From Patescibacteria group bacterium (GTDB taxonomy: Bacteria > Patescibacteriota > Patescibacteriia > UBA10025 > JBIOWE01), in assembly GCA_044868145.1 (NCBI GenBank), contig JBIOWE010000006.1:14558-78557 (forward strand): a stretch of 64,000 nt of DNA, in the 5' to 3' direction. A program made the position numbers and the translations under genes. A model generated the notes under the pieces. It did not search any database, was not told where the DNA came from, and saw only the letters and a list, made by a program, of their open reading frames with translations. Positions 2,348-47,804 of this stretch are shown one piece after another. Numbering within the stretch: the first letter of the stretch is position 1; each line of letters begins with the position of its first letter.

Positions 2348-3937
2348 ATGAAGAAAGTCATTATTGATGGCAACAGTTTAACAATCGAAGATGTTGTACT
2401 GGTTGCCAGAGGAAGCGTAGAAGATGGGGAGCATAGGTGCCCACATGTAGAAATTTCTGAAGAGGCAAAGAAGAAAGTGAAAGATTCTCGGGCCGTGGTC
2501 GACCATATTGTCGAACAAGGGCTCGTCCGATACGGTATTACGACTGGCTTTGGTCAATTCCAAAATTCAAAAATACTGACTCCCGAAGACGCTGAGTTGC
2601 TTCAAAGGAATATTGCTCTAAGTCATTCTGCCGGCGTCGGGGATTTGTTCCCAATCGAGATTGTCCGTGCAATTATGTTTTTGCGCGCTAACACTCTTGC
2701 GAAGGGATATTCTGGTGTTCGGTTGGAAACATTACAGCTTTTGATTGATATGCTCAACAAAGGCATCTATCCTGTGATACCAGAGCAGGGATCTGTCGGC
2801 GCGAGTGGCGACTTGGCTCCGCTGGCACACATGACAGCCAGCATGATTGGCCACGGATCAGCCGTGTTTGGGGGAGAGGTTTACAATAGCGCTGATGCGT
2901 TGAGGAAGGTCGGTCTTGAACCCATTGTGTTAAGCTACAAAGAAGGACTGGCTTTAACGAATGGGACACAAGTCATGACCGCCATAGGTGTACTTGCGTA
3001 TCATGATGCATGTCGATTGGTAACCACAGCGGACATTGCCCTATCTCTAACGGTGCAAGCTGTCTTAGGCCATACATCTCCCTTCATGGAGTTTATTCAC
3101 GAAGCTCGTCCGTATCCCGGTCAGCAAAAGGCTGCAAAAAACATGCGTCAGCTGTGTGAGGGGAGCATGGTGCTTAATCTTTCTGAAAATCAGGCCCCGG
3201 AAAAACGCAAGGAATCAGTGCAAAATTCCTATTCCATCCGGTGCGCTCCTCAAGTTCATGGTGCTGCGTGGACCAACCTATCATTCATTCGTCAGGTTTT
3301 GGAAATCGAAATTAATTCAGCCACTGATAACCCGTTGATATCCATCGAGTTAGGCGATTCTTTTTCGGGCGGCAACTTTCATGGTCAGCCGATCAGTCAG
3401 GTAATGGATTTTTTAAAAATTACCATGGCGGAGATTGGCAGCATTTCCGAACGGAGAACGTTCAAGCTCATTGACGAGAATCATAACGGTGGCTTGCCAG
3501 AATGTTTGATAGAGCCGAAAGGTAAAAGTGGGCTCAACTCCGGTTTTATGATCGCTCAGTATACTGCAGCTGCTCTAGTTTCTGAGAATAAAGTGTTATG
3601 TCACCCCGCGAGTGTTGACTCGATCCCTACTGCGTCTGATTCAGAGGATCATGTGAGCATGGGGCCCGTTGCTGCTCGGCAGGCCCGAGAGATTATCGGG
3701 AACGTGACGAACGTTCTTGCGATTGAGTTTTTATGCGCCTGTCAGGCAATGGATCTCAGAATAAAAACCGGTTTTAAGGACTTTTCGGGAGCTGCCATGA
3801 AGATACGCGATGAAGTCCGCAAGTTTGTGCCATATCTCGAGCAAGATGAGATGCTATCAGACAAAATCAGTGCTGTAAGAAAACTGATTAGTTCCAATAA
3901 AATCATCGAAGCGGTAAAAGAGTACATTGAATTCTAG
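2348..3937 (+). CDS. hutH: Histidine ammonia-lyase (aromatic amino acid ammonia-lyase/MIO family)
   Basis: GASGDLAPLAH Ala-Ser-Gly MIO-forming motif; full-length HAL/PAL fold with the conserved ...NPLI... and C-terminal helices. Confidence 0.8.
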   Translation: MKKVIIDGNSLTIEDVVLVARGSVEDGEHRCPHVEISEEAKKKVKDSRAVVDHIVEQGLVRYGITTGFGQFQNSKILTPEDAELLQRNIALSHSAGVGDLFPIEIVRAIMFLRANTLAKGYSGVRLETLQLLIDMLNKGIYPVIPEQGSVGASGDLAPLAHMTASMIGHGSAVFGGEVYNSADALRKVGLEPIVLSYKEGLALTNGTQVMTAIGVLAYHDACRLVTTADIALSLTVQAVLGHTSPFMEFIHEARPYPGQQKAAKNMRQLCEGSMVLNLSENQAPEKRKESVQNSYSIRCAPQVHGAAWTNLSFIRQVLEIEINSATDNPLISIELGDSFSGGNFHGQPISQVMDFLKITMAEIGSISERRTFKLIDENHNGGLPECLIEPKGKSGLNSGFMIAQYTAAALVSENKVLCHPASVDSIPTASDSEDHVSMGPVAARQAREIIGNVTNVLAIEFLCACQAMDLRIKTGFKDFSGAAMKIRDEVRKFVPYLEQDEMLSDKISAVRKLISSNKIIEAVKEYIEF

Positions 3938-3949
3938 CCACATAAAATT

Positions 3950-4023
3950 GGAGGCGTAGTGCTAGTGGCCCAGCACGGTTGGTTGTGGCCCAACAAACAC
4001 GGGTTCGAATCCCGTCGCCTCTA
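3950..4023 (+). tRNA. tRNA-His (anticodon GTG)
   Basis: Hand-folded cloverleaf. Acceptor GGAGGCG/CGCCTCT with G1-U72; D-stem GTGC/GCAC; anticodon stem GTTGG/CCAAC with loop TTGTGGC (anticodon GTG); T-arm ACGGG-TTCGAAT-CCCGT; discriminator A. It lies immediately upstream of hisS. Confidence 0.8.
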
Positions 4024-4052
4024 ATATTTACTACCAGAGGAGGTGGTACGTA

Positions 4053-5453
4053 GTGAATCAAGAAAAACAAGATAGAATACAGCCGAAGATCTTGCGTGGA
4101 ATGAGGGATTATCTCCCAAGCCAAATGATGGCTCGACAGGGCATGATCGCAACGATACGATCGGTGTATGAACTGTACGGATTTGTTCCGCTCGATACAC
4201 CAGCGATAGAATGGTTGCCAGTACTCACCGGCCAATACGGAGGACAAACAGACATGGACATCTTTACGTTGAAAGATCCAGATGGAGAGCCTGCGGCGCT
4301 CCGGTTTGATCTCACTGTTCCTCTGGCGCGCGTGGTGGCAATGTATCCTGACTTGCCTCGTCCATTCAAACGGTATCATGTTGCGCCCGTGTGGCGAGCT
4401 GACAAGCCAGCCCCTGGACGTTTCCGAGAATTTCTGCAATTTGACGCAGACATCGTCGGTACATCGTCCATGGCTGCGGACACCGAGATCATAGCGATCA
4501 TGTATGATACACTCAGCGCACTTGGCGTTCAACGGTTTATCATTCGTTTCAGCAATAGGAAAGTACTGAATCGTTTGATACAAAAAGCTGGCATTGATCC
4601 TTTCTTCGCGGTTGATGTTTTCCGCATCCTCGATAAGGTCGAAAAACTTAGCCTTGATGGTGTAAAGGAAGAGTTAATGCGACAGGGTGAACCCGGAGTT
4701 GACCAGCGAGAAATTGTTGCGAGTGCACGTTGCCTTGGTTTACCTGAGTCATCCGCCGATACAGTGTTGAATTTTTTGAAGATCCGCGGTAACAATGACG
4801 AAGTTCTGAAGCAGCTAAGCGAGTTCTTTGATGATCTTGCGGGCGCTCGGGAAGGGATACAGGAGCTCGCGGCAATCTTACAGGGCCTTCGGTCCCTGGA
4901 GATTCCAGAAGATCGATACACCATCGATCTGTCAATTGCACGTGGCCTTCTTTACTACACCGGACCGGTGTTTGAAACGTCATTACTGGACGCGGAACGA
5001 TTTGGAAGCGTATTCTCAGGCGGGAGGTTCGATCGTCTGATTGGACGATTCCTCGGCGAAGACGTGCCAGCAACGGGGGCATCAATCGGTGTTGATCGAT
5101 TATTGGCAGCGCTCGAGGCACTGGATCTCATCAAATCGCAGCCCACGCCTGCGCAAGTGCTTGTGACGATTCTTGACTGGAATCGCATGAACGACTACCT
5201 GCAGATTGTTGGAGAGATCCGACGCGCAGGCATTCCCGCGGAACTCTATATGGGCGAAAAGGCACCTATTGGTAAGCAATTACAATATGCCAATCGACAG
5301 AGTATCCCGCTGGCAGTTATCGCGGGTCCAAAAGAGTTCACGGCAGGAACGGTTACCGTGAAAGAACTCTTACGAGCTCTGGAGGATACATCGAAACAAA
5401 CATCTATTGAAAGAAAACAGCTCATTCCCTTTATTAGGCAGATGCTCTCTTAA
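4053..5453 (+). CDS. hisS: Histidyl-tRNA synthetase
   Basis: Class II HisRS motifs (RGMRDYLP, ...FRYERPQ-like RFDLTVPLAR, GGRYD-like GGRFDRL). GTG start preceded by a GGAGGTGG RBS. Confidence 0.9.
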   Translation: MNQEKQDRIQPKILRGMRDYLPSQMMARQGMIATIRSVYELYGFVPLDTPAIEWLPVLTGQYGGQTDMDIFTLKDPDGEPAALRFDLTVPLARVVAMYPDLPRPFKRYHVAPVWRADKPAPGRFREFLQFDADIVGTSSMAADTEIIAIMYDTLSALGVQRFIIRFSNRKVLNRLIQKAGIDPFFAVDVFRILDKVEKLSLDGVKEELMRQGEPGVDQREIVASARCLGLPESSADTVLNFLKIRGNNDEVLKQLSEFFDDLAGAREGIQELAAILQGLRSLEIPEDRYTIDLSIARGLLYYTGPVFETSLLDAERFGSVFSGGRFDRLIGRFLGEDVPATGASIGVDRLLAALEALDLIKSQPTPAQVLVTILDWNRMNDYLQIVGEIRRAGIPAELYMGEKAPIGKQLQYANRQSIPLAVIAGPKEFTAGTVTVKELLRALEDTSKQTSIERKQLIPFIRQMLS

Positions 5454-15430: not shown

Positions 15431-16234
15431 ATGGCCATACTTTCGACCGAAGCGATGGTGCTCTCGAAGAAGAATATTCGCGAAGCGGATCGCCTGTATA
15501 CGTTTTACACAAACCAATACGGCAAGGTTGAAGCCATCGCGAAAGGAGTGCGCAAGACGAGGAGCAAGCTCGCGGGAACGCTCGAACCGATCTCCCGTAT
15601 TACGATCACGTTGGCAAGCGGCAAAACATTCTTCACCATCGTGGCATGCGAAACGCTTTACGCATATCGACGTATTAAATCTGAGCTGGAGCCATTGCTG
15701 CTTGGGCAGCGTATCCTTGCCGTTGTTGACCGACTCACTGAGTTCAATCAAGCCGACGCGCGCACCTATTCGCTGGTCCGAGAAACGCTTGATGGGCTTG
15801 AGGAAGAACGTTCAGAAGGGCATTTGCCTCTTGTTGCGTATTGGTACTTTCTTTGGCGTTTCACGGCGGTGCTCGGTTACGCGATTGATTTGTATCGATG
15901 CGCAGTCTGCGGCAAGCGTTTAACGCCGGACGGCAACGTCCTTTCGCTGAGCCATGACGGTGTTTTGTGCGCCTCATGCGCAAAAACGCGTCAGGGAATG
16001 GCATTCCCACGGACGGCCATTGTCGTGGCGAGGGAAATATTCCGTCGGCCCCTTCTGGAATTCGGGCGCGTGCGATTCACGCCATCCACGAGGCAAACGT
16101 TCCAGCGGGTCACCGCCCACCTTCTGGATTCGCTCGCGGAGCGGGAAGCGCGGTCAAGCAAGGATATCTTTTGGCAACAGGCTGACGGCGTGACAAACCA
16201 CCAGTATGGAAAAAAACATCGACAAACAAGCTGA
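15431..16234 (+). CDS. recO: DNA repair protein RecO
   Basis: N-terminal OB-fold (EAMVLSKKNIREADRLYTFYT) and a C-terminal CxxC...CxxC zinc motif. Confidence 0.8.
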   Translation: MAILSTEAMVLSKKNIREADRLYTFYTNQYGKVEAIAKGVRKTRSKLAGTLEPISRITITLASGKTFFTIVACETLYAYRRIKSELEPLLLGQRILAVVDRLTEFNQADARTYSLVRETLDGLEEERSEGHLPLVAYWYFLWRFTAVLGYAIDLYRCAVCGKRLTPDGNVLSLSHDGVLCASCAKTRQGMAFPRTAIVVAREIFRRPLLEFGRVRFTPSTRQTFQRVTAHLLDSLAEREARSSKDIFWQQADGVTNHQYGKKHRQTS

Positions 16235-18080
16235 CCATAGCCAACTCGAGGGGTTGCGGGCCCTTTTTGGTCCTCGAGAGGGCCAGCCAGATGACTTGCG
16301 CCATATAAGCAGGAAAGATCCGTTCAAACGACGCAAAATTTTCGCTTTGATCATCCTCGCCCTCGTCGTCTTATCTTCCGCAGCGCTTGCAGGCTTCTTT
16401 TTGTTTAATAAAAATGAAAAATTTTCTGGCGACAACATTGTTCTTTCGATCAGTGGGCCAGCCAATGTGGACGCTGGGGGAGAAGCGCAATTTCTCGTGA
16501 CCTACGAAAATAATGAAACTGTTGATATTCGCAATGTCCAGCTTACCATGCAGTTCCCCACTTATTTCCGTCTGACTTCTTCGAGCATTGAATCGACGAA
16601 TGACGCCAAGAATGCGTGGGATCTTGGTGATTTGAAGAAGGGCTCAAAAGGCGCGTTGGTTCTGACCGGCACGGTTACCGGCTTGGTGGGTCAATCCGCC
16701 TCCTTGGACGCCATTCTCTCGTATACGCCGGCGAATTTCAGTTCTGAATTCCAGAAACGTACGAGCCATTCCGTCACGATCAAGTCGGCAACGACCAGCG
16801 TGAGTCTCGATATTCCTGTGCGCGTTTTGAGCGGCCAAGAGGAAACATACGCCATTCATTACAAGAACACCGCGGCCGAGGACGTCAGTCGTTTGCGCAT
16901 TCGGGTGACCTATCCCTCGGGGTTTACTATCGTAAGCCAAAAGCCTGATCCGAGCGAAGGCAAGGACGTCTGGGAAATCGAATCCCTGGCAGCCGGTAAA
17001 GAGGGAGAGGTGACTTTTACCGGCACGCTCGAAGGCAAAGACAATGAGTTGAAAGAGTTTCGCGTGCAATTGGAAACATCCGGACCGGACGCGGCATTCC
17101 ACATCCAAGAAGAAAAAACAGCGCTCGTACTTGTCCTGCAACCGCAATTCCTTGTTCAATTATTCGTGAATGGCACTGAAAAAAGCGGAACGACGTCCTT
17201 TCACACTACCCAGACGATTGCCCTTCGATACAGCAACCAGAGTGATCGTTCATACGAAAACGTTGTCTTGAAGGCGAACCTCACCGGATCAGTGATTGAC
17301 TTGTCAACCGTACAGAACATCAGTAAAGGCAAGCGCAGTGGTACAACCATCATTTGGGATAAAACGGTTGTCCCCGGCCTTGCTCACGTGGATCCCGGCA
17401 AGGGAGGCGAAGTGTCTTTTACCGTGCAAACGAGTGAGGAGCCGGCGCCCGGCGATCAAAACGTTCGTTATTCATATGAAGTAACCGCTGAAGCAAGCGC
17501 CAACGACACGAAAGATTTTCAGAATAAGACTTTTACGCTGAAGGTCGATCCTGTGGTCACCAAGATCTCCACGTTTTTTTCTTTTCGTGCGGAAGCCCGG
17601 TATTATAACGAAGAATACATTCCGGTCGGTTCCGGGCCGTTGCCGCCTAAGGTAGGCGAGGCGACCCGCTACCGTGTGTATTGGTTTTTACAAAATACGA
17701 CGAATGAAGTGAGCAATGTTCAGGTTCAAACAACGCTGCCTGAAACCGTGACATGGACCGGGCGCTCAACGGTTTCCGCAGGCGAGGCGCTCACCTTTGA
17801 CTCAGTGACGCGCATCGTGACCTGGCGAATCAATAAATTGCCGCCCCATGTTGGCACTCTTATTCCCGAACTTGAAGCGAGCTTTGAAGTGCAGGTCACG
17901 CCACAGGAGGCCGACGTGGGAAAAACACTCGTTTTAACGAAACAAGCATTCGCAAGCGGCGACGATACGTTTACCAACCAACACCTGCAGAATGCCGAAG
18001 ATTCCCTGACCACAGAGCTTGCGAATGATCCGCTGGCGAAAGGCAAGGGCACGGTTCAGCCTGCAGATGAACCTCAATAA
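16206..18080 (+). CDS. Membrane-anchored surface protein with DUF11-type repeat domains
   Basis: N-terminal TM helix, then repeated units of the form VTY-N-(V/T)...V-L...G...W-LG-L--G-----T--V (for example SISGPANVDAGGEAQFLVTYENNETVDIRNVQL). Confidence 0.5.
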   Translation: MEKNIDKQADHSQLEGLRALFGPREGQPDDLRHISRKDPFKRRKIFALIILALVVLSSAALAGFFLFNKNEKFSGDNIVLSISGPANVDAGGEAQFLVTYENNETVDIRNVQLTMQFPTYFRLTSSSIESTNDAKNAWDLGDLKKGSKGALVLTGTVTGLVGQSASLDAILSYTPANFSSEFQKRTSHSVTIKSATTSVSLDIPVRVLSGQEETYAIHYKNTAAEDVSRLRIRVTYPSGFTIVSQKPDPSEGKDVWEIESLAAGKEGEVTFTGTLEGKDNELKEFRVQLETSGPDAAFHIQEEKTALVLVLQPQFLVQLFVNGTEKSGTTSFHTTQTIALRYSNQSDRSYENVVLKANLTGSVIDLSTVQNISKGKRSGTTIIWDKTVVPGLAHVDPGKGGEVSFTVQTSEEPAPGDQNVRYSYEVTAEASANDTKDFQNKTFTLKVDPVVTKISTFFSFRAEARYYNEEYIPVGSGPLPPKVGEATRYRVYWFLQNTTNEVSNVQVQTTLPETVTWTGRSTVSAGEALTFDSVTRIVTWRINKLPPHVGTLIPELEASFEVQVTPQEADVGKTLVLTKQAFASGDDTFTNQHLQNAEDSLTTELANDPLAKGKGTVQPADEPQ

Positions 18081-20518: not shown

Positions 20519-20622
20519 AGCAACTCCTTTTATTCGTTTCGGCAGAGTAAACACTCTGTTTTTTTGTTTACAAAATGTGAAAAATATGATATAATCTATC
20601 CGGTTGCTGATAAAAACCGACT

Positions 20623-21012
20623 ATGACGCAAAACGTTTTTGTTTCATCGCTTCGTTATATTCTGATTGAAGTCATCGGCGATATTTTTTATTTTCCTGTG
20701 TGGTGGTATTCGGCCGGACTCGTGCGCGCGGGTCGATATTGTATTCGAACATTTCAAACTCGGATCCGCAACATTGCTCTGGGCCTCTGGTTGCGGAGTA
20801 TGTTCAAGCCCATGTTCGGAGATTACAGTCGTCAAGGCAGATTAATCAGCATTTTCATGCGTCTCGTCGTATTAATCTATAAGCTCGCGCTGACCGTGTT
20901 TGCGCTTTTCTACTCGCTGCTCCTGTTTCTGCTTTGGGTGATCTTACCAATCGTTATTGCCTGGTATCTGCTCTTTCAGGTGTTCGGGCTCCCCTTACCA
21001 TTTTCTCGATAA
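20623..21012 (+). CDS. Hypothetical membrane protein
   Basis: Three to four predicted TM helices. It overlaps the upstream extension of the next ORF. Confidence 0.35.
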   Translation: MTQNVFVSSLRYILIEVIGDIFYFPVWWYSAGLVRAGRYCIRTFQTRIRNIALGLWLRSMFKPMFGDYSRQGRLISIFMRLVVLIYKLALTVFALFYSLLLFLLWVILPIVIAWYLLFQVFGLPLPFSR

Positions 21013-21020
21013 ACGCATCA

Positions 21021-23777
21021 ATGGCTACGGAATCCGCTCAACGTTTCGTCTACATTCCATGTTCGCTTTGCCATGGCAGCGGTGTGCAAGCCGGTCAGTC
21101 GTGCCCACAATGCAATGGCCGCGGGGCCTATCTTTGGCTCGAGAACGAATTTTTTTATTGGGGCAGAGTTATTGACACCTTTCACATTTTTGAACGTGAA
21201 CTTGAGCAAACGACCCGATTAATCCTGAACGGTTTTTTGCTGCTCTTCGGCATTCTCGGGATCGCTGCGCTCGTCCTTGCCGTGCTCCAGTCGATGACGC
21301 AGGCCGGCGACCCGTTCGCCGCGTTCACGTCCCGTTCGCCGCTCATGAGTCTTTTTGCGATCAGTCTTGTGGCGGACTTGTATGTCTATTACCGTTTTCA
21401 GCGGCAGTCATTTTTGCAGAAAACCGTCAAAGGGAAATCGTACGAATCGCCTGTCACAGATCTTCCCGTTGAAGAACTCTTTAGCCAGGCGGTGGCGCAA
21501 GGCAAACGCGCAAACGACGTTTCCTTGGCCTATAGCCAGGAAGCGCATCGCATGGTGGAACAGGCATGGCAACTCGCCAGGCGCCTGAAGCACGGCTCGG
21601 TTGAACCGTTGCATTTGTTCGGGACCCTGCTCGCCAATCAAAAATCGCGCGTGATCCTCGCGCGACTGGGCGTTGACGTTCGCATCCTCACTGACAAGAT
21701 ATCCCGCGTCCTTGAACGCGCGCCAATTGTTGAAGGAACTCCCGTGTTCTCTCCGGCACTGCGTACAATTCTTCTCGCTGCATATAAGGAAGCGTCCATG
21801 ACTCGTCAGCGTACCGTTGACGCGCCGCAACTGTTTGCGGCAATCGTGGAGCATGACCAACACTCGCGGAATATTCTCTATGACATGGAAATTGAGTATG
21901 ATGACGTGCGGAACGTTGTTGAATGGATTAATATCCAACAGCGCTTTTCCGCGCGTTGGCGCTCGTGGCAATCGAAGGCGCGCCACAAACCAAAAGGTGT
22001 GGTGGATCGCGCGATGACCGCGGTGGCCACGCCGCTTTTGGACAAGTTCAGCCGGGACCTCACTTTGCTGGCGCGGTCGGGCGTGTTGCCGCCGGCGCTT
22101 GGGCGCGAGAACGAAATTGAAGCGGTGTTCCGGACGCTCGAAAGCGGCAAGAATGCGCTTTTGGTCGGTAATCCCGGCGTGGGAAAAACGAGCATTGTGG
22201 AAGGCATCGCGGAATTGATGACGAGCGAAGAAGTTCCGCCGTTTTTGCAAGACAAGAGATTTGTGAGCATTTCCATCGCGTCGCTCGTCGGCGCTTCTGG
22301 CAGACAGGGCGAGCTCGAAGGACGGCTGACCGACATTATGAACGAGATTACGCGCGCTGGGAACATTGTGGTTTTTATCGATGGTATTGAAAAAATGATT
22401 GGTATTTCCACAGAGGGCGCGCAAAATCTTGATGTGGCCGATATTTTTGGCCAAGCGCTGCAACGCAAGCTTTTTTGGTGCATCGCGACCACCACACCGC
22501 CAGACTTCCGCCGTTACGTCGAGCACTCATCCTTGCTCGAGGTGTTTGCGCCGGTTATCGTTGACGAACCCAATACCAACGACACGATTCTCGTTCTTGA
22601 AGGAAAGGCAGGCCCTATCGAAGTGAAACATCTCGTGTATTTTTCGTATAGCGCCATTGAAAAAATCGTGGAAATGTCTCAACGCTACATTCATGACCGA
22701 TTCTTGCCGGAAAAAGCGATAAGCTTGCTTGAGGAAGTGGCGGTGTACGCCAGAAAAAAACACGGGAAGCATTCAATCGTTCGTGGAGACGAAGTGGCGG
22801 AGGTCGTTGCGCAAAGAACGCATATTCCTGTCACGCGCGTCACCCAGCAAGAGGGTGAGCGCTTGATGAATCTTGAAAAGCGCATTCACGAGCGAATGGT
22901 TGACCAGGAAGAAGCGGTGGGCGCTGTGGCAACCGCGCTGCGGCGCGCGCGCGCGGAATTGCGTGACGTACGGCGGCCAATCGTGAACCTCTTGTTTCTC
23001 GGGCCAACCGGCGTGGGAAAAACAGAACTCGCGAAAACCGTGGCAGAAGTGTACTTCGGTTCGGAAAATACCATGATCCGTCTCGACATGTCCGAATATC
23101 AAGAAAAGTCATCTATTAACCGGCTGATTGGCGCGCCGCCGGGCTACCGGGGCGAAGGGGAAGGCGGCTTTCTTACTGATGCCGTTCGCGCGAATCCGTT
23201 TTCGCTTGTGCTCCTCGACGAAATTGAAAAAGCGCATCCGGATATTCTCAACATTTTTTTACAGGTTATGGACGACGGGCGATTGACGGACACGCTTGGC
23301 CGAACTATTGATTTTACGAACGTGATATTGATTGGTACCTCAAACGCTGGCACGCCGCTCATCATGCAGCGCGTGCGCGAAGGCGTGCCCATGGAACGCA
23401 TCAAACGAGAACTGCTGGAAGAAGCACTCGGTCAATATTTCCGGCCGGAGTTCCTGAACCGGTTTGACCACGTCGTCGTGTTTAAACCGCTTGGTATGGA
23501 AGAGGTGGTGAAGATTACGGAATTGCTTCTCAAGCAGGTCGCGGCAAATCTGCAACCGAAAGGCATTACGTTTCGCGCTTCCAAAGAAGCGATCGCAGAA
23601 CTCGCGCAGGTTGGATTTGATCCAGTGTTTGGCGCGCGTCCGCTCCGTCGCGCAATCCAGGAGCGGGTGGATAACGCACTCGCGAACTATCTTTTGCAGG
23701 GAAGAATAGGCCGTCGAGATATTGCGATTCTTGATGTCGGCGGCGCGATTCGCGTGGAAAAAGCGGAACAACTGTAA
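21021..23777 (+). CDS. Membrane-anchored Clp/Hsp100-type AAA+ ATPase (ClpA/C/B-like) with N-terminal zinc ribbon
   Basis: CSLCHGSG...CPQCNGRG zinc ribbon, one TM helix and a Clp_N-like repeat. NBD1 has GNPGVGKTS but Walker B reads FIDGIEK (Glu replaced by Gly). NBD2 is canonical (GPTGVGKTELAK, LLDEIEKAHPD). I saw no ClpP-docking loop. Confidence 0.8.
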   Translation: MATESAQRFVYIPCSLCHGSGVQAGQSCPQCNGRGAYLWLENEFFYWGRVIDTFHIFERELEQTTRLILNGFLLLFGILGIAALVLAVLQSMTQAGDPFAAFTSRSPLMSLFAISLVADLYVYYRFQRQSFLQKTVKGKSYESPVTDLPVEELFSQAVAQGKRANDVSLAYSQEAHRMVEQAWQLARRLKHGSVEPLHLFGTLLANQKSRVILARLGVDVRILTDKISRVLERAPIVEGTPVFSPALRTILLAAYKEASMTRQRTVDAPQLFAAIVEHDQHSRNILYDMEIEYDDVRNVVEWINIQQRFSARWRSWQSKARHKPKGVVDRAMTAVATPLLDKFSRDLTLLARSGVLPPALGRENEIEAVFRTLESGKNALLVGNPGVGKTSIVEGIAELMTSEEVPPFLQDKRFVSISIASLVGASGRQGELEGRLTDIMNEITRAGNIVVFIDGIEKMIGISTEGAQNLDVADIFGQALQRKLFWCIATTTPPDFRRYVEHSSLLEVFAPVIVDEPNTNDTILVLEGKAGPIEVKHLVYFSYSAIEKIVEMSQRYIHDRFLPEKAISLLEEVAVYARKKHGKHSIVRGDEVAEVVAQRTHIPVTRVTQQEGERLMNLEKRIHERMVDQEEAVGAVATALRRARAELRDVRRPIVNLLFLGPTGVGKTELAKTVAEVYFGSENTMIRLDMSEYQEKSSINRLIGAPPGYRGEGEGGFLTDAVRANPFSLVLLDEIEKAHPDILNIFLQVMDDGRLTDTLGRTIDFTNVILIGTSNAGTPLIMQRVREGVPMERIKRELLEEALGQYFRPEFLNRFDHVVVFKPLGMEEVVKITELLLKQVAANLQPKGITFRASKEAIAELAQVGFDPVFGARPLRRAIQERVDNALANYLLQGRIGRRDIAILDVGGAIRVEKAEQL

Positions 23778-23822: not shown

Positions 23823-24206
23823 TTAGGTCGAGACGTTACGCACCGAGTTGAAAACGAAGAGGAAGATCGACCAAGCGAGTAAGACAATGACGAGCCCAAT
23901 AACGGCCCCGCGGAGGATCTCCTTGGCTTTGCGGATGCGATCTTCGTTTCCGGCCGCGGTCATCCATACGAGTCCTCCGTAGACAATCAACACGACTGCC
24001 ACGAGTCCGAGCAGGCCAAGCACCCACTGTAGGAAGTTAATTGAGGTGCTCTGCAGGTCATTAGCTGGTAAATTGAGCTTTGCTCGAATCGAACCTCCGG
24101 GGTCGAATTCAATCGCTTGTGCGACGTATGTCGAATGGAATATGAGCACGCCAAAAGTCGTGAGCGACAGGAGAGTGCGGTTGATGGATCGTTGCATTTT
24201 TTGCAT
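23823..24206 (-). CDS. Small secreted/membrane protein with a signal peptide and two C-terminal hydrophobic helices (pilin/VirB2-like topology; tentative)
   Basis: The internal ATG gives MQKMQRSINRTLLSLTTFGVLIF..., with two TM helices separated by AAGNEDRIRKAKEILRG. Confidence 0.35.
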   Translation of the reverse strand: MQKMQRSINRTLLSLTTFGVLIFHSTYVAQAIEFDPGGSIRAKLNLPANDLQSTSINFLQWVLGLLGLVAVVLIVYGGLVWMTAAGNEDRIRKAKEILRGAVIGLVIVLLAWSIFLFVFNSVRNVST

Positions 24207-24309
24207 ATGCCAACTCAAGTATAAGAGAAAGATGCTTGCTTGACAAGATGAGAAGCAGCGGCTTACAATAGCTCCACAAAACAGCAACTTGAAAATAAGG
24301 AGGAGCATC

Positions 24310-25554
24310 ATGAATTCCGCAACAATGATTGGCGGAGGAGAAGAAAAAACTATCCGCTGTACGTTTGAGGGAAAACGTATTGAATGCAAGGCGCGCGTCA
24401 ACCTGCTCGAGACGTGGATTGCAGTGGTTACGGAGGGTCCCCAGATCGGCATGCTTGGTTTGCCCATTTGGGAAGACGAGGCGAAACTCGTTTCGTCATC
24501 CGGGGAAATTCCAGATATCGAATGGACGAGCGATAAGGTTCATTATGTACTGTATCGTTCGCTCTATTACGCGCTGCGAAACGTTATGCAAATTTTTCAA
24601 AAGTACCATCTTGCTGTCCATGTGGGTGAGCATGCCGCTATGCAGGAAGCGCTGACCGCTTCTCGAGAGCTCAATCAAATCTTTTTGGGAGTTCGCAAGG
24701 ATAACGAAAAAGAATTTGAAGCGTTGCTCGCCGGGAAGATTCAGTCGATGCTTGGCCGATTAAGCCCGCGCCCGAAGAATCTGTATAAAAAGGAAGGACA
24801 GATGTATCTTGGTGAGTTGCGCACGGCTCGTGATCGCTTGGGCAGAGTGAATCAGAGTGCCAAAATGGCTATATCGAAGGCAGCCGAACGTCGCTTCAGT
24901 ATGCGTGACGAGCAAATTTGCTTTACTATGCCCGTGCTCGCCGAGCGTCAGAAAGCGCTCGAGATTCTTCGCGATCTTATTGCGCTGCGTTTTTCTTCGG
25001 CAAAAGAATTCCTTGAGAATCTATTGGAAGAATCCAATTATCAGAAACTCTTCGGGAATCCTGTGCAACGGGTGAACGTAGGCGCAAGACTTTATAGCCT
25101 TGCGCAAGATATTGCCGCCATTGATATTCAGCCGTATACGTTTACAGCAGCGATGGTCGCAAAGGAATTTCAGCAGGCACAGCAGCTGCTTTTGAAGAAT
25201 CAGCCATGGAAAGCACGCGAAATTCTTGATATCAGTTTACGATCGCTACGCTTGAAAGCCGCACAACAGCGCATCGAAGATCTTATCACGGATATAACGA
25301 TCAGAGACGACGGTACGTTGGATAAGCGTAGCCTCGACGCCAGGATTAAGGATGTGTACTTGGATCTCAAGAACATTCCTGAGGCAGGGTTCGTCATATC
25401 TACGAAGGAGGGGATTCTCGTTTTTCTTGAGACAGCTCAAGCGTTTTTGCAAGCGGGCAGTATGAAGCAATGCCGCGCCGCCCTCAAAGAAGCTTCCAAT
25501 GTGATGCAAGCGCTGCCGCAAGGGGCACTGCACATTTCAAACACCACTCAATAA
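24310..25554 (+). CDS. Hypothetical protein (largely helical)
   Basis: ATG 24310 with an AAGGAGGAG RBS. No recognisable motif. The terminator hairpin at 25538-25573 overlaps its end. Confidence 0.4.
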   Translation: MNSATMIGGGEEKTIRCTFEGKRIECKARVNLLETWIAVVTEGPQIGMLGLPIWEDEAKLVSSSGEIPDIEWTSDKVHYVLYRSLYYALRNVMQIFQKYHLAVHVGEHAAMQEALTASRELNQIFLGVRKDNEKEFEALLAGKIQSMLGRLSPRPKNLYKKEGQMYLGELRTARDRLGRVNQSAKMAISKAAERRFSMRDEQICFTMPVLAERQKALEILRDLIALRFSSAKEFLENLLEESNYQKLFGNPVQRVNVGARLYSLAQDIAAIDIQPYTFTAAMVAKEFQQAQQLLLKNQPWKAREILDISLRSLRLKAAQQRIEDLITDITIRDDGTLDKRSLDARIKDVYLDLKNIPEAGFVISTKEGILVFLETAQAFLQAGSMKQCRAALKEASNVMQALPQGALHISNTTQ

Positions 25555-25667
25555 TTTGAGTGGTGTTTTTTTATCTTGACGCCTGATATATTGTTTGTTA
25601 ATGTAACAAGACGGAAAAATAAAGAGCTTTTTGAAAACTTAAGACTAAAAAGGAGGTGACTACTCTT

Positions 25668-26768
25668 TTGAAGAAGCAAAGAAAAAAATGGTCACGCGAG
25701 AAGATCATAGCAAAAATTCAGTTCCGCCGCTCAAAAGGGTGGCCACTGAACTGGCAGTATGTTAGTGATTACTGTCAAGGACTTGTATCTATGGCGCAGC
25801 ACTACTTTGGTAGTTGGCGTTCAGCGATCGAGGTTGCAGGAATAGACTATAAATCGATTTGCGATCATCTCCCACCAAATACATGGACCAAACGAACCAT
25901 CAAGAAAACCATACAAGTTCGTCACAAACTCGGCCTGCCATTAAATGGAGATAATGTCAGAAAAACGCTTCCAGGATTGATGTCAGCAGCAAGGAGAATA
26001 TTTGGTTCATGGAGGAAGACGGTGGAAGCTTCTGGCATTCGTTATGAGAGGGTGCGAGTGTTGACAGCGTGGAATAAAAGGAAGATTATTCTTGCCATCC
26101 AACGGCGGAAGCGACAGCATAAACTATTAAATGTTGGTGCCGTTATAAAAGAAGATCGGAAACTTGTATCCGCAGCTGATTTACATTTTGGTTCTTGGAA
26201 CAAAGCGCTGAAGACCGCCGGATTCAATCCTGACACAATCTACATTCACCGTGTTTGGTCAAAAGAGAAGGTCCTGAGTGTCTTGCGCAAACGAATTCGA
26301 GAAGGTAGGGCAGTCAACAGGCAAGCACTCATAGAAGAGGATATGGGCCTTCAGCAAGCGACTGACAATTACTTTGGAAGCTGGGGAAAGGCTATACGGA
26401 AACTCGGGTATGACCCAAACGCTATGAGAAAACACCATTTTTGGTCAGAGAAAGAAATCCTTCAGAAACTTAGTGTCCTGATAAAAAATGGTGAAGCGAT
26501 AGATACGATAAGTCTGTTCAAGAAAGATCCAAAATTATTCAGCGCAATTCAGGTTCATATGGGAGGGCTCCATAACGCCTTAGCCCGGTTGGGCGTCAGC
26601 TCGGAGAAGCATCTACAATATCGTGTCCCCCTAAACAAGTGGGTTCGGAACTTGAATAAAAAAGAGATGCAAGAACTCACTGGGCAAACCTTAAGAATGA
26701 TTCACTTGGAGCGTTCCTCTACACCTATTTCTCAAAGGAGGAAGGCTGGTATAAAAAAGAAAAGATAG
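25668..26768 (+). CDS. Tandem-repeat DNA-binding protein: five copies of a ~62-aa 'homing-endonuclease-associated' type repeat, no nuclease domain
   Basis: Repeats W-x-K/R-E/K-K-I-I...G-x-P-L-N...V...L..AA...FGSW..A...AGI. TTG start 25668 is inferred by parallel with the paralog: both have AGGAGGTGA...TTTGAAGAAGC upstream. The 25656 GTG lies inside the RBS. Confidence 0.55.
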   Translation: MKKQRKKWSREKIIAKIQFRRSKGWPLNWQYVSDYCQGLVSMAQHYFGSWRSAIEVAGIDYKSICDHLPPNTWTKRTIKKTIQVRHKLGLPLNGDNVRKTLPGLMSAARRIFGSWRKTVEASGIRYERVRVLTAWNKRKIILAIQRRKRQHKLLNVGAVIKEDRKLVSAADLHFGSWNKALKTAGFNPDTIYIHRVWSKEKVLSVLRKRIREGRAVNRQALIEEDMGLQQATDNYFGSWGKAIRKLGYDPNAMRKHHFWSEKEILQKLSVLIKNGEAIDTISLFKKDPKLFSAIQVHMGGLHNALARLGVSSEKHLQYRVPLNKWVRNLNKKEMQELTGQTLRMIHLERSSTPISQRRKAGIKKKR

Positions 26769-26923: not shown

Positions 26924-28003
26924 TTGAAGAAGCGAAAGTTACGCCATTGGACACCCGAGAAGATTCTGCGAATAATAGAGTATAGATCTTCAAAGGGGTG
27001 GCCACTGAATGCTAACCATGTACAGGATCATTGCGGCGGATTGTACATAGCTGCTGTGAGGCATCTTGGAAGCTGGCAAAATGCACTCGCAAAGGCCGGT
27101 ATTGATTATCGTAGTGTTTACAAACAGTTCCACGGAATTTGGAATAAAAAGTCTGTAGTTCAGGCAATTAGAAAAAAATATCGAGCCGGAGAACCGATGA
27201 ATTATCAACATGTGCTGGAACACCAAGGATTTCTCCTTTCTGCCGCCATCAAGAAATTCGGTGCGTGGCGTAAAGCGGTGCTCGCCGCTGGTATCTCATA
27301 TCAGGATGTTGCCGTAAAACGTCTTTCCGGTTATTGGAACGAGCGCTCATTTAAGAGGGCAGTTCGGAAAATGTATGAAGAAGGAGAGGCTCTCAATCCA
27401 GGCTACATAATGAAACGCCATGCGGGGATGTTCGGTTTCGCCAATCGCACCTACGGATCATGGAGAAAAGCTCTCTTTGTGATCGGTATCAAGGATTACG
27501 ACAACGTTCTTGTCCTTCAGCAATGGACGAAGGCAAAGGTCATTAAGTGTATTCTAAAAAGGTGGAAAGAAGTTAAGAGCCTTGACCAGAAAGAATTGGA
27601 GAAAGAGGACATGCCATTGTTCGGGGCAGCCCAGAAATATTTCGGCAGTACCGTTCGAGCGCTTCTAGCAGCTGGGCTCGATCCGAATACAGTCAGGACA
27701 CGAAAGCGATGGACCAGGGCAAATATCCTTGCCGAGCTTCGCGACCTTGTCTTCGCTGATCATGAACCTATTGACGCAGGAAGTTTGCTGCGAAGACACC
27801 CCTCATTACTAAGCGCTATTAATAAACATTGCGGGGGGCTTCGCAACGCGTTTGCAATGCTTGGCCTAGAACCAAAAAAGTATCTTTTAGCCGACTTGCC
27901 GATAGAAGACTGGGTGCGATCACTAAGTAACAACGAATTTGCAAGAGTTATCAAAGAAACACAGAAAATGATTGCAATCGAACAAAGAAAGGAGAAAACA
28001 TGA
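26924..28003 (+). CDS. Tandem-repeat DNA-binding protein, paralog of 25668-26768 (five repeats)
   Basis: Same repeat architecture (SSKGWPLNANHVQDHCGGLYIAAVRHLGSWQNALAKAGIDY, etc.). Its stop codon overlaps the next ATG (ATGA). Confidence 0.55.
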   Translation: MKKRKLRHWTPEKILRIIEYRSSKGWPLNANHVQDHCGGLYIAAVRHLGSWQNALAKAGIDYRSVYKQFHGIWNKKSVVQAIRKKYRAGEPMNYQHVLEHQGFLLSAAIKKFGAWRKAVLAAGISYQDVAVKRLSGYWNERSFKRAVRKMYEEGEALNPGYIMKRHAGMFGFANRTYGSWRKALFVIGIKDYDNVLVLQQWTKAKVIKCILKRWKEVKSLDQKELEKEDMPLFGAAQKYFGSTVRALLAAGLDPNTVRTRKRWTRANILAELRDLVFADHEPIDAGSLLRRHPSLLSAINKHCGGLRNAFAMLGLEPKKYLLADLPIEDWVRSLSNNEFARVIKETQKMIAIEQRKEKT

Positions 28004-29394
28004 AGCAGGAAGATCAGTATGCAATCAAGTATTTACCCATCGAGGACATTGAACAAACACTGAAACAACCTCGAGAGACATTTGAAGCAGAGCCATTGGA
28101 TGAGCTTGCGAAGTCAATAAAAGACAAAGGGCTGCTTCAACCAATCATTGTAAGACAGAACGGCACGAAGTACGATGTCGTAGTCGGGGGTCGACGTATT
28201 AAAGCCGCGGCGATAGCAGGGCTGCGAGAAATCCCTGTAATTATTGCGGATGTATCTACATCAGAAGCTTTTGAACTCGCCCTTATTGAAAACGTCCAGC
28301 GAGAAGACCTCACGTTTTTTGAGGAGGCAAACGCGCTCTTGCATCTCATGCGGTCTGGAGATTTTAATAACGCTGATGATTTGGCTGAACGGATTGGAAA
28401 GAACAGATCCTTCATAGTGAGCAGACTGAAACTTCTCCAGTTGCCGGAATCCATTCAAACAATGGTTGCGGAAAAGAAACTTGGTATCTCACACGCGGTC
28501 GCCTTGACGAAATTGCCCGATAAGAAACGTCAAGAAGCCACGGCTAAAATTGTCGCGAAGGATCGTCTGACGCTCACAGAGACACAGAGTCTTGTTTTGA
28601 AGAAAACAGGGTCCCTTGTTCGGCGCTATAAAGTAGCAGAGACGAACTCGCCCATTGCGATTCTCGAACGGCTACACAACTATCTAACCCTTGTAGCAAA
28701 TTTAGATTGGAGCCAGGAAGGAAAGATTACCCAGAAAGGTTTGAGAGAAAACTTGGAGAGGGTTGCGCGCAGCTTATTAAACGTTGCGGAGCTTCTCGCT
28801 AAGGGTTCCCCTGCCGAGGAAACGAGGGAGTTCTTGCAAAAAACAAATAAATCAGTAAGTGCGCAACTCAAGATTCTGGGTTTAACGAACCATTGCGAAC
28901 AAGCACGATGGCACTTGCGACGGTTTGATTTTTCCGGGGTGAACCTCGAAGACACTCAACGAATAGCAGAAGTTCTACAGGCACTCCGTCAATTGATAGA
29001 TCTTCGATTAAAGAATCTGCCGCTCCGAAGAGTCAAGGAAGCAAAGAAATCTGCGAGTAAACAGCGTCCAAGCGATAAGTCCTTTGTATCCCCCGATCAT
29101 GTTTTGCGGACTATTTGTGACCAATATGGCATTTCGCTCAAACGGTTTTTGAGCCCCGAGCGAACTGAAGATTTGATCACTGCTCGGCAAATTGCCGCTT
29201 ATATCTTACGCGAGGACTTGGGCCTTACATTTCCTAACATCGCAAAAAAACTGAATAGGGCTACCCATCTAACTGTTATGTATGGCCATGAGGTTATCCA
29301 GGCAGCGATCAAGAAAAATAAGGATTTGCGTATCAATCTTAGTTCGCTCCGAGAAAAGATCTTCGGACCAGCGGTGCAAGTGAAGGATGGGTAA
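28000..29394 (+). CDS. ParB-like protein (ParB N-domain plus HTH) fused to a DnaA domain-IV DNA-binding domain
   Basis: ParB box I [18 protein letters not shown]; box II/CTP-arginine patch [15 protein letters not shown]; ParB HTH [35 protein letters not shown]. The C-terminus [48 protein letters not shown] aligns with DnaA domain IV ([44 protein letters not shown]). Confidence 0.65.
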   Translation: [464 protein letters not shown]

Positions 29395-31394: not shown

Positions 31395-31471
31395 TGATTC
31401 CTCCTATGATTTGATTGTTCAAAGTTCAATTTTGATTAAGCCAGCTTAGCATTTGCGAATCTTGTTTGTCA

Positions 31472-32860
31472 ATGTCATTACAACTTTACAACACTCTAAC
31501 CCACAAAAAAGAACCCTTCAAACCATTGAAGGGTAAAGCTGTTGGCATGTACACCTGCGGGCCGACGGTGTATGAGTATGCGCATATCGGGAATTTGCGC
31601 ACGTATGTCTTTGAAGACGTACTGAAACGCGTTTTGAAGTTCAATGGCTACAAGGTGAAACACGTAATGAACATTACGGACGTTGGACATCTGACCTCGG
31701 ACGCTGATACGGGCGAGGATAAAATGGAGCAAGCGGCGCAGAAGGAAAAAAAGTCCATTTGGGAGATCGCCGAGTTTTATGCGAAGGCATTCAAGCACGA
31801 TTTATGGGATTTGAACATTGAAGAGCCGGACATTTGGTGCAAAGCAACGGATCATATCAAAGAACAAATCGAATGGGTGAAAAAGCTCGAACAAAAAGGA
31901 TTCACCTATCGCACGTCTGACGGCATTTACTTCGATACTTCCAAACTGTCGGATTATGGCAAGCTCACTGGCCAAAATCGGCAGGAGTTGCTTGCTGGTG
32001 CTCGCGTTCAGATGAGCGCGGAAAAAAAGAATCCAACGGACTTCGCCCTGTGGAAGTTTTCGCCGAAGGATAAAAAACGCGCGATGGAATGGGAGTCGCC
32101 ATGGGGCAAAGGGTTTCCCGGCTGGCATTTGGAATGTTCCGTGATGGCGCAGAAGTACCTCGGTGAAACGTTTGACATCCATTGCGGCGGGATTGACCTT
32201 GCGCCCATCCATCATACGAACGAAATCGCGCAAGCGGAAGCGATAACGGGCAAGCCGCTCGCCCGCTATTGGCTGCATGGTGAGTTTTTGACGATTGATG
32301 ACGGCCGCATGGGCAAATCCGAAGGAAATTTTATCACGCTCAAAACGTTGAAAGAGAAGGGGTTCAACCCTCTCGCGTATCGTTTGCTCCTTCTGCAAAC
32401 GCATTACCGTTCCAAAATGAATTTCACCTGGGAAAGTTTGCAAGCTGGCCAGGCGAGTTTGACGAATCTCTATCATCAAGTCGCGGCGCTCGGAGAAGCA
32501 AAAGGCCTGTTGAAAGAATACCTGACGAAATTCCATGACGCGATCAACGACGATTTAGACATGCCAAAAGCGATGTCTATCATGTTCAAACTCGTTGACG
32601 ATCCTCGTGCCCCTGCAGGGGCGAAAAAAGCGACATTGTTGCGATTCGACGAGGTCTTGGGTCTGAATCTGGATAAACCGCAGGCGATTTTTTCAGAGAT
32701 GTCGATTGCCACAACGACCACGCCATCGCCGCATGAGGCTGAGGTTGCAAAACTATTGCGCGAGCGAGATGCGTTCAGAAAAGCTGGCGATTTTAAAAAA
32801 GCCGATGAACTTCGCAAGAAAATTGAATCAATGGAGTATCAGGTGAAAGATAAGCAATAA
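31472..32860 (+). CDS. cysS: Cysteinyl-tRNA synthetase
   Basis: [20 protein letters not shown] (HIGH), KMGKSEGN (KMSKS) and zinc-binding Cys residues. ATG 31472 matches the CysRS N-terminus. Confidence 0.9.
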
Positions 32861-42851: not shown

Positions 42852-42908
42852 ACTTGACACTACGTCATAATCTTATATAATCTTATATAGTCAGAATATA
42901 AGATTATG
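42852..42908 (+). promoter_or_regulatory. Promoter with a 13-bp perfect palindromic operator overlapping the -10 box and the fic start codon
   Basis: TTGACA-N17-ATAATC. Palindrome CATAATCTTATAT ... ATATAAGATTATG; the ATG of the Fic gene lies inside the right arm. Confidence 0.5.
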
Positions 42909-43970: not shown

Positions 43971-44117
43971 TTGTATTTAATAATAAAGGTGTTTTTACCT
44001 GAACTCTTTAAGGTGTAAAGAAAAAGTTAATTTATCAACTCCCGTCTCTACAATGAGGAATTGATTTTTTGATGGAAAAGTGGGAGAATGAGTATAGATT
44101 TACAATAAGAAAACAAC

Positions 44118-45242: not shown

Positions 45243-45296
45243 GTTGTTGTTCCACTGCCTGGAGCTCGAACGATTTTTTTTCAAGGCAAGTAAAAG

Positions 45297-46847: not shown

Positions 46848-46988
46848 GTGTCATTTTTACAATACTGCCTACAAAAGTATCATTAACATTCGGTTTTCTT
46901 GATTGTTTAGTCAAAAGATTCGCTCACCAAGCGTGGGGACAGCACGCCTCCGAAAAGCGGCTAACAAAAAACCCTAATTTGAGAAAAT

Positions 46989-47438
46989 ATGAACGAGAAA
47001 AATTGCAAGAATTTATTTCGGCAATACCGGGAACTACGAGAAAGGACTACAATGCGAGCCCAACGCATAGACTCCACGAGAGAGGTGAAAGCTCAATACA
47101 TAGATTTTAAGGCTCAAGAAGAATTAGAGAGTGTTAGAAAACAGTTAGAGGATTGTTTATTATTTTTTTCAGAAGAACAGCTTATCCATATCTCTAAAGA
47201 CGATGATTTGCAGGAAAAAGCGTTTGAGACATTGAGTAAGAAAAGAGGGTTTGGTGACACCAAAAATTATTCGACGAACGATTTAGGGCAAAAATGTGAA
47301 GAATGTGGTGAACCGCTAAAGCCATCTCAATTCGCAAGAATTAAGAGAGATGGTCAGGCGAGTGAACAGGTCGATAACGGTTTAGTTTGTAGGAATTATC
47401 CTGCATGCCCGAAAGCTGAAAAGGAAATAGAAAAATAA
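46989..47438 (+). CDS. Hypothetical protein with C-terminal zinc ribbon
   Basis: CEECGEP...CRNYPACP. Confidence 0.3.
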   Translation: MNEKNCKNLFRQYRELRERTTMRAQRIDSTREVKAQYIDFKAQEELESVRKQLEDCLLFFSEEQLIHISKDDDLQEKAFETLSKKRGFGDTKNYSTNDLGQKCEECGEPLKPSQFARIKRDGQASEQVDNGLVCRNYPACPKAEKEIEK

Positions 47439-47799: not shown

Positions 47800-47804
47800 A
47801 GCGT

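Follow-up and report, generated by a model that had tools for sequence, protein, structure and literature searches.

A predicted membrane-anchored Clp/Hsp100 paralogue with a degenerate first ATPase ring and a small membrane partner in Patescibacteria

The DNA analysed in this study, called the window below, is a stretch of 64,000 nucleotides (nt; 64 kilobases, kb) on contig JBIOWE010000006.1 of a Patescibacteria group bacterium. This study was concerned with two adjacent genes in the window: a gene for a class-I Clp/Hsp100 ATPase at 21021..23777 (+), called the Clp-like gene, and the gene directly in front of it at 20623..21012 (+), which encodes a small integral membrane protein of 129 amino acids (aa) and is called the partner gene. 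A first-pass annotation of the window had described the Clp-like product as a membrane-tethered machine with one degenerate ring and did not mention the partner. The Clp-like gene is an intact open reading frame (ORF) of 918 aa plus stop. The ORF opens at a TTG at 20934, its first ATG is at 21021 and the upstream ORF stops at 21012; on these positions ATG 21021 is assigned as the start. A separate gene call on the source contig gave the identical 918-aa product, and homologues (about 910-935 aa) align with the Clp-like protein from residues 1-14 on. The N-terminal extension is translated, since it is conserved at the protein level in homologues, and the first-pass annotation's reservation that the true start might lie downstream of the transmembrane (TM) segment can be set aside.

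The partner gene ends 9 nt before the ATG of the Clp-like gene. A promoter-like site (TTTACA-17-TATAAT, TG-extended, 11/12 matches) at 20567..20595 (+) and a terminator-like hairpin after rpsD at 20541-20560 were identified by consensus scan only, and that scan gave no promoter-like site between the two genes. The assignment of the partner as a small integral membrane protein comes from homologue linkage, hydropathy and an AlphaFold2 (AF2) model, in which it forms two long helices (predicted local distance difference test score, pLDDT, 89.2). It has a basic central loop (9 K/R vs 1 D/E) and a hydrophobic C-terminal helix of 45-50 residues. No Pfam family matched the partner at E <= 0.01, and its model gave no significant Foldseek match in PDB, where the helical hairpins retrieved reached E 3.2 at best. 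The alignment of partner sequences contains the invariant motifs YFPxWWY..GL, PMxG (PMFG in the window) and GRxIS.F.R, and R73 and R80 are invariant in 78/78 partners.

The two genes are found together well beyond the window. Partner homologues lie directly upstream of the Clp homologue in 4/4 other loci (L002-L005), which had been retrieved via the Clp protein. In addition, a scan with the partner alone, using one genome per species, identified 480 genomes that carry it. Among the best 80 of these, the Clp-like gene is immediately downstream on the same strand in 77, with a typically short intergenic gap. The exceptions are L036, L082 and a third, L077, which is uninformative because only 176 nt of contig are left downstream of the match. 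At least 1189 protein clusters of about 110-145 aa make up the partner family; none has a Pfam domain, and the source names shown are all 'hypothetical protein'. From this arrangement we infer that the two genes are co-transcribed, and their products most likely assemble together. The titles of the best 80 partner genomes are Patescibacteria-group metagenome-assembled genomes (MAGs) or generic, with some 'uncultured Gammaproteobacteria' and one Acutalibacteraceae. Many third-party annotation (TPA) records titled 'uncultured Gammaproteobacteria bacterium' carry the pair, with 40-60% identity to the Clp-like protein; these titles look like placeholder mislabels.

The Clp-like protein was placed in its family by its ORF, Pfam and NCBIfam matches, PDB alignments, homologues, the gene call and its AF2 model. 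It has the class-I Clp/Hsp100 domain order (Clp_N, AAA+AAA_lid_9, AAA_2, ClpB_D2-small). Pfam matched PF02861 Clp_N at residues 184-231 (30.6 bits, cut-off 20.7), PF00004 AAA (80.5 bits) and PF17871 AAA_lid_9 (51.6 bits) in the first ATPase module, D1, and PF07724 AAA_2 (213 bits, E 3.5e-63) and PF10431 ClpB_D2-small (73.2 bits) in the second, D2. The Clp_N-type N-domain extends over residues ~172-321 (21534..21983, +), as seen from PF02861, from alignment with ClpB and ClpC N-domains and from a helical bundle in the AF2 model. This model has a mean pLDDT of 85.7 (75-sequence alignment), and its top Foldseek matches are ClpC and ClpB protomers, with the best superposition on ClpC subunits. The best NCBIfam match is ClpB TIGR03346, at 642.9 bits against a cut-off of 1232.1. 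Scores also fell below the cut-off for ClpA (561.3 vs 993.15), ClpV/TssH (505.3 vs 884.95) and the ClpG and ClpK exception models (509 and 528 vs 1900), so that every NCBIfam equivalog cut-off was missed. On domains, scores and motifs the protein is thus assigned to class I, outside ClpB, ClpA, ClpC, ClpV and ClpG/K as these are defined. The top 120 homologues have about 45-62% identity to it. The sources shown are nearly all Patescibacteria groups (Kerfeld-, Buchanan-, Falkow- and Uhrbacteria, Parcubacteria), with one 'Candidatus Eisenbacteria', and the architecture is conserved across Patescibacteria orthologues. The database labels of these homologues are '(ATP-dependent) Clp protease ATP-binding subunit', 'ClpC' and 'AAA family ATPase'.

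The D1 AAA+ module (22038..22820, +) appears to be a pseudo-ATPase, as judged from PDB alignments, family counts, PF00004 and PF17871. The motif register, for D1 and D2 alike, was taken from HMMER alignment to Thermus thermophilus ClpB (1qvr) and Staphylococcus aureus ClpC (6em8), and all motif positions given here are on the plus strand. The D1 Walker A (22167-22190) is intact and reads GNPGVGKT. In Walker B (22368-22385, VVFIDG) the sequence VVFIDGIEKM lies opposite ILFIDELHTV, so that the catalytic Glu is replaced by Gly455. At the Arg-finger site (22533-22547, LLEVF) SSLLE-VFAPV lies opposite AALERRFQPV, with both Arg residues gone and a one-residue deletion. The first-pass annotation had read the same three motifs in this way, and the alignment also confirms its Walker B register, which it had flagged as a possible error. 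A further lesion, absent from that annotation, lies in pore loop 1 (22290-22328), where GASGRQGELEGRL is found opposite AGAKYRGEFEERL and the pore Tyr is replaced by Arg428.

These D1 substitutions are characteristic of the family. The Walker B Glu position is occupied by N82 / D25 / S3 / E2 / G1 in 113 close homologues and by N48 / D19 / G3 in 70 species-level homologues, with Glu in 0/70. The Arg fingers and the pore-1 Tyr are present in none of the 113 close homologues and are gone in nearly all of the 70 species-level ones, four of which have the first-finger Arg. Among the close homologues the Walker A Lys is K in 107/113 and the following position is T or S in 84/113. Because the P-loop is intact, D1 would bind nucleotide; because it has neither the catalytic Glu nor the Arg fingers, it would not hydrolyse it; and because it has no pore Tyr, it would not grip substrate. 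By contrast, both nucleotide-binding domains (NBDs) of ClpB have the Walker B Glu, the Arg fingers and the pore Tyr, and both rings of class-I Hsp100 proteins are normally active. Non-hydrolysing rings that keep the P-loop and serve mainly in assembly are found in NSF (D2), PEX1/PEX6 (D1) and p97 (D1). The predicted D1 ring would be analogous to these in being the one ring without hydrolysis, although they belong to another AAA+ clade.

The D2 module (22878..23735, +) is canonical, as the first-pass annotation had stated for NBD2: all of its motifs are present by alignment, and PF07724, PF10431 and family invariance agree. They include Walker A GPTGVGKT (23001-23024), the pore loop GAPPGYRGEGEGG (23130-23168; GAPPGYRGEG, with GYRG), Walker B LVLLDE (23205-23222), sensor-1 Asn775, Arg finger R814 (23460-23462) and sensor 2 GARPLRR (23631-23651). 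The D2 catalytic residues are invariant in the 113 close and the 70 species-level homologues, and the mean pairwise identity of the large subdomains is 68% for D2 vs 47% for D1. The Clp-like protein is presumably a hexamer, since the trans-acting R814 is invariant.

Two elements that couple class-I proteins to other machinery were looked for, and neither was present in the Clp-like protein; the first-pass annotation had likewise reported no long M-domain and no ClpP-docking loop. In the M-domain region, residues 578-586 of the query bridge ClpB 1qvr residues 393-520 and the AF2 model has no coiled coil, and the short M-domain of ClpC (residues ~400-464) aligns to a gap. The ClpP-docking loop of ClpC ('FAGFGGSSDG') aligns to a gap as well: nothing is inserted in D2 from sensor 1 to the Arg finger, and a docking tripeptide is missing where the loop would be. 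The pattern [ILVM]G[FLM] occurs just twice in the 918-aa protein, as LGM at 824, at the start of D2-small, and as VGF at 864. VGF 864-866 was rejected as a ClpP loop since it sits in the conserved 'G(Y/F)DPVFGARP' motif of D2-small. No MecA/McsB-type adaptor gene was seen in the window.

The missing docking loop bears on whether the protein is the unfoldase half of a membrane-anchored protease, with substrates passed either to ClpP, through a contact of a non-canonical kind, or to a membrane protease such as FtsH. This would agree with a ClpP gene 2 kb from the pair in one relative (L004) and with the annotation of homologues as 'ATP-dependent Clp protease ATP-binding subunit'. However, the loop is deleted as it is in ClpB, the ClpP gene was adjacent in one annotated locus inspected only and is not among the recurrent neighbours, and the database annotation is automatic. 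The Clp-protease labels are probably misleading because there is no ClpP-docking loop, and we regard a protease-coupled role as very unlikely.

Comparison with the known class-I proteins gives a mixed picture. The Clp-like protein shares with ClpB/Hsp104 the N-domain, the two AAA+ modules, D2-small and a D2 without a ClpP loop, and its D2 is 43% identical to that of a Patescibacteria ClpB. Unlike ClpB, it has no coiled-coil M-domain, and would therefore have no DnaK coupling; it also adds a predicted N-terminal zinc finger and TM hairpin, and in one genome its family coexists with a true ClpB. With ClpA it shares a D1-D2 junction without an M-domain and a single-stretch alignment over residues 172-896, but it lies below the ClpA equivalog score and has no IGL ClpP-docking loop. 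Its AF2 model resembles ClpC most closely, whereas the short M-domain and the VGF-type ClpP loop of ClpC are absent. It differs from ClpC, ClpA and ClpE together in its predicted inactive D1, its DnaJ-type finger and its membrane anchor. N-terminal zinc-binding domains also occur in ClpE and ClpX.

The N-terminal module consists of the zinc finger and the anchor. The finger (residues 14-35; 21060..21125, +) has the pattern C14-x2-C17-x-G-x-G ... C28-x2-C31-x-G-x-G, that is, two CxxCxGxG repeats (CSLCHGSG-x6-CPQCNGRG); behind it lies a conserved beta-hairpin that includes W39 and W47. The AF2 model places strands in this region at residues 9-13, 36-40 and 43-46. The four Cys residues are kept in 97/113 full-length close homologues and in 74/82 genome-derived homologues, and the strict double CxxCxGxG is present in 46/82. 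Pfam DnaJ_CXXCXGXG matches 36/39 members and Anti-TRAP 31/39, and a profile of the family N-terminus matched anti-TRAP (3lcz, E 1.1e-9) and the Escherichia coli DnaJ cysteine-rich domain (CRD; 1exk, E 4.9e-9) in PDB. The full DnaJ CRD (PF00684), with four repeats and two zinc centres, scored 24.9 bits vs a gathering score of 32.7. Because there are only two repeats, the protein would have one zinc centre; DnaJ differs in having two and a J-domain, which the Clp-like protein lacks. The finger is predicted to be of a one-zinc DnaJ-CRD/anti-TRAP type, DnaJ-like and neither a full CRD nor a generic zinc ribbon. When residues 1-136 were compared by phmmer with 1.84 billion representative proteins, 137 relatives were obtained. 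Matches to the whole module were N-terminal, the full-length proteins among them having about 890-960 aa, and matches to the finger only were internal in multi-repeat proteins of about 130-535 aa.

The first TM helix (residues ~66-90; 21216..21290, +) has a Kyte-Doolittle value of 2.83 over 19 residues, is strongly hydrophobic in all homologues and lies within an AF2 helix at 53-95. A probable second helix (residues ~107-125; 21339..21395, +) has a value of ~1.2 in the Clp-like protein and of about 2.0-2.1 in several homologues; it carries the conserved motif F112..D119-x-Y121-xx-Y124-R125. In the AF2 model helices 53-95 and 107-132 form a hairpin (block pLDDT 84-91). The first-pass annotation had proposed a C4 zinc ribbon and a single TM helix at the N-terminus. 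Its finger and tether are borne out, in orthologues as well; the finger is of the DnaJ/anti-TRAP type instead of a ribbon, and the anchor is probably a two-helix membrane hairpin in place of the single helix, judging from hydropathy and the model. With two membrane spans, the zinc finger and the ATPase would both lie in the cytoplasm, which is probable but not proven. An intramembrane salt bridge between D119 of TM2 and R80 of the partner was also considered and is unsupported: R73 and R80 are retained in every partner, including those whose Clp-like protein has another residue in place of D119, and in the absence of covariation such a bridge could not be tested in this way.

Neighbouring genes were clustered for 85 loci, namely five Clp-derived loci (including the window's own contig) and the best 80 partner genomes. 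The partner is the only universal neighbour, and the other recurrent neighbours are syntenic housekeeping genes. Among the neighbours counted were a CLIPPER/DUF11 surface protein (32/85 loci), TGT (29/85), a class II aminoacyl-tRNA synthetase (20/85), L21 (17/85) and a convergent T4SS_pilin gene (15/85). The last of these is present in the window at 23823..24206 (-) and encodes a T4SS_pilin-family small membrane protein (PF18895, E 1.2e-14). The first-pass annotation had reported this convergent gene correctly, but its relevance as a neighbour did not survive: it recurs in only 15/85 loci, while the upstream partner is linked in 77 of the best 80. Since it is convergent and not operonic, the pilin gene was rejected as a part of the system. 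Its presence downstream, also in the close relatives L002 and L005, hints at a ClpV-like accessory ATPase of a pilus or secretion system. In addition to the low frequency and orientation of the pilin gene, however, no other secretion genes are nearby, no type VI secretion system (T6SS) genes lie near the Clp-like gene and the TssH model gave 505 against a cut-off of 885, and such a role is extremely unlikely.

Further information came from the relatives. In one Patescibacteria MAG a divergent gene for a canonical ClpB of 881 aa (L085:3162-5807, -) adjoins the pair. The full-length match of this ClpB to TIGR03346 reaches 1187 bits, and the M-domain, LFIDELH, LERRF, KFRGEF and GYVG are intact, which makes the protein an internal control for the D1 lesions. 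With a canonical ClpB beside the pair, the Clp-like family is a paralogue and not the ClpB of the lineage, presumably with a non-redundant role of its own.

This paralogy bears directly on a second alternative, in which the protein is a stand-alone, membrane-tethered general disaggregase for soluble proteins whose finger replaces the M-domain and DnaK coupling and binds clients directly. In ClpG an extra N-terminal domain binds unfolded or aggregated clients directly. The Clp-like protein has neither an M-domain nor a ClpP loop, its D2 is ClpB-like with the pore Tyr kept, and a finger of the DnaJ-CRD type is a client-binding element in DnaJ (PMC5915565). On the other hand, a canonical ClpB adjoins the pair in L085, the D2 pore Tyr is missing in most relatives, and the tether, the conserved TM2 motif and the obligate membrane partner would be left unexplained. 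We consider a soluble-protein disaggregase unlikely.

A link to the cell envelope was suggested by other relatives. A PF00953 Glycos_transf_4 gene, which we take to belong to the polytopic MraY/WecA family, lies within about 700 nt downstream in 24/80 loci and within 12 nt in 10. At L038:4231-7935 (+) and in P0311 the Clp-like ATPase is fused in frame to a C-terminal Glycos_transf_4 (1231-1234 aa), a Rosetta-stone case that would hint at a functional link unless it is due to a frameshift in the assembly. YidC is directly upstream of the pair in L004. A separate ORF at L085:9064-10713 is a Glycos_transf_4-QueH fusion.

The reading that we tentatively prefer, at slightly less than an even chance, is that the Clp-like protein is a membrane-tethered, partner-assisted and D2-driven remodeller or extractase of membrane or membrane-proximal proteins that works without ClpP and DnaK. 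Like every functional statement on this protein made here, it is drawn from sequence. The partner and the ATPase would form a two-gene, Patescibacteria-specific membrane machine, with an ATPase hexamer that its N-terminal hairpins would tether to the membrane's inner face. FtsH and Msp1 have their entry face towards the membrane. Anchoring at the N-terminus would likewise turn the N-domain/D1 entry face of the Clp-like protein towards the membrane, which is the opposite of what an exporter would need. In this machine D1 may be a nucleotide-binding assembly or scaffold ring, comparable to NSF-D2 or PEX1/6-D1, and D2 may be the sole motor. With no M-domain there would be no control by DnaK, and with no docking loop no feeding of ClpP, so the machine would work alone, pulling, unfolding or extracting membrane-embedded or membrane-proximal proteins for quality control or assembly of envelope proteins. 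Clients or adaptors would be recognised via the zinc finger, the N-domain and the partner. The Glycos_transf_4 genes and the YidC gene of the relatives are consistent with envelope clients. Thus, of the machine proposed in the first-pass annotation, the architecture is supported by alignment, conservation and the AF2 model, and the terms unfoldase/disaggregase and ATP-binding-only ring are ones that we infer, in view of the D2 Tyr, the Walker A erosion described below and the coexistence with ClpB.

Membrane-protein extraction by FtsH and Msp1 (PMC7949044; PMC12793716) was used as a working analogy. In FtsH and Msp1/ATAD1, N-terminal TM segments hold the substrate-entry face of the AAA+ ring to the membrane, much as is proposed here. 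These proteins differ in having a single classical AAA module with no Clp_N and no zinc finger, and FtsH adds an M41 protease, so the likeness is one of analogy, with no homology beyond the AAA+ fold. For a DnaJ-type finger working with a membrane AAA+ protein there are analogous precedents in trans. The plant TM protein FIP carries two CXXCXGXG repeats and binds FtsH5, an AAA+ protease of the membrane (PMC5915565), and Moc50, a TM-anchored DnaJ-like zinc-finger protein, scaffolds the Orf2971-FtsHi motor (10.1101/2024.09.02.610899). In both the finger acts in trans, whereas in the Clp-like protein it is fused in cis to the ATPase. The full-text literature, with incomplete coverage and as absence of evidence only, gave no membrane-anchored, zinc-finger or D1-dead Hsp100 in Patescibacteria or the candidate phyla radiation (CPR), only analogies.

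Several results weigh against a membrane extractase of this kind. First, the D2 pore-loop Tyr, kept in the 918-aa protein and its close clade, is present in only 20/70 species-level relatives, so canonical threading is not a conserved property of the family. Most of the Tyr-less loops are four to six residues shorter and contain no aromatic, and the Tyr is missing in 22/26 of the Glycos_transf_4-linked loci sampled. Secondly, the D1 Walker A is eroding in the 70 species-level homologues: the Lys position is K in 57 and R in 12, and the Thr/Ser is lost in 31/70 (T/S in 39), so that an ATP-binding scaffold role of D1 may not generalise across relatives. Third, TM2 is only moderately hydrophobic in the 918-aa protein; should this helix fail to cross the membrane, the finger would be extracellular. 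Fourth, apart from the partner, the neighbourhood of the Clp-like gene is mostly housekeeping. Lastly, the Glycos_transf_4 fusion was seen just once and may stem from a frameshift in the assembly, and the Glycos_transf_4 linkage is missing from the window, in which neither such a gene nor a canonical ClpB was found; the YidC and ClpP neighbours of relatives are likewise not in the window.

Because the pore loops are eroded in relatives, weight is gained by a further alternative, a non-threading ATP-driven switch in which D2 hydrolysis acts through the TM hairpins to control the activity, assembly or gating of the partner or of a Glycos_transf_4-type enzyme. The pore aromatics are gone from D1 family-wide and from D2 in 50/70 relatives, while the D2 ATPase motifs are invariant. 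Tight coupling to a membrane partner with invariant Arg residues, and a Glycos_transf_4 gene that is operonic in many relatives and fused once, would also suit a switch. However, the D2 GYxG loop is canonical in the 918-aa protein, which also retains Clp_N and the overall ClpC/ClpB fold, and we know of no class-I Hsp100 that acts without threading. A pure switch is thus quite unlikely. A more speculative proposal, also unlikely but worth stating, combines elements of the switch and the extractase: a hetero-oligomeric Patescibacteria machine, with a ring of TM hairpins and partner under a one-motor Hsp100, would act on polytopic envelope proteins, for example an MraY/WecA-type transferase, which it would remodel, extract or gate, in most members without aromatic pore loops and thus not by tyrosine-paddle threading.

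To our knowledge, class-I Hsp100 proteins are treated as soluble proteins with two working rings and with either an M-domain that couples them to DnaK or a docking loop that couples them to ClpP. The Clp-like family, present in hundreds of Patescibacteria species, departs from this at once in its anchor, its DnaJ-type finger, its predicted pseudo-ATPase D1, its lack of a coupling element and its lock to a partner. If the membrane extractase reading is true, the family would be a bacterial counterpart of the eukaryotic membrane extractases on an Hsp100 chassis, a natural test of the capabilities of a lone D2 motor, and a way into envelope proteostasis in a lineage that is uncultivated and host-dependent.

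Several other features of the window were noted. Upstream of the pair, 16206-18080 (+) encodes a probable surface protein of 624 aa with CLIPPER/DUF11 repeats. Its homologue lies about 4 kb upstream of the Clp-like gene in the 32/85 loci counted above, often with TGT, an arrangement that suggests conserved synteny more than any obvious link in function. Downstream, a 421-aa ORF with no Pfam family (24289-25554, +) is divergent from the pilin gene, with a promoter-like pair at 24218-24269 between them, and 11 related loci have, at the corresponding place behind the Clp-like gene, an ORF from a cluster of about 412 aa. Tandem paralogues of about 360 aa at 25656-26768 and 26924-28003 (+) consist of PF18780 'homing endonuclease associated repeat' units, in which no nuclease domain was detected. 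They are followed at 28000-29394 (+) by a gene for a 464-aa protein with an unusual combination of ParB_N and HTH_ParB with a C-terminal Bac_DnaA_C, the DNA-binding domain of DnaA.

The window is also unusually rich in aminoacyl-tRNA synthetases, with class I enzymes of the Arg, Ile/Leu/Val and Met families, His and a second class II enzyme. An aromatic amino-acid (histidine/phenylalanine) ammonia-lyase, tRNA-His (3949-4024) and histidyl-tRNA synthetase follow one another at 2348-5453 (+), and 31466-32860 is a probable Cys ligase by its position on the source contig. Lastly, in the region 42906-48000 a Fic-domain protein (42906-43970) is followed by a stretch of low guanine-plus-cytosine (GC) content (GC 0.40-0.43 vs ~0.48 elsewhere), which carries large ORFs without Pfam families at 44118-45242 and 45297-46847 and may be an acquired island.

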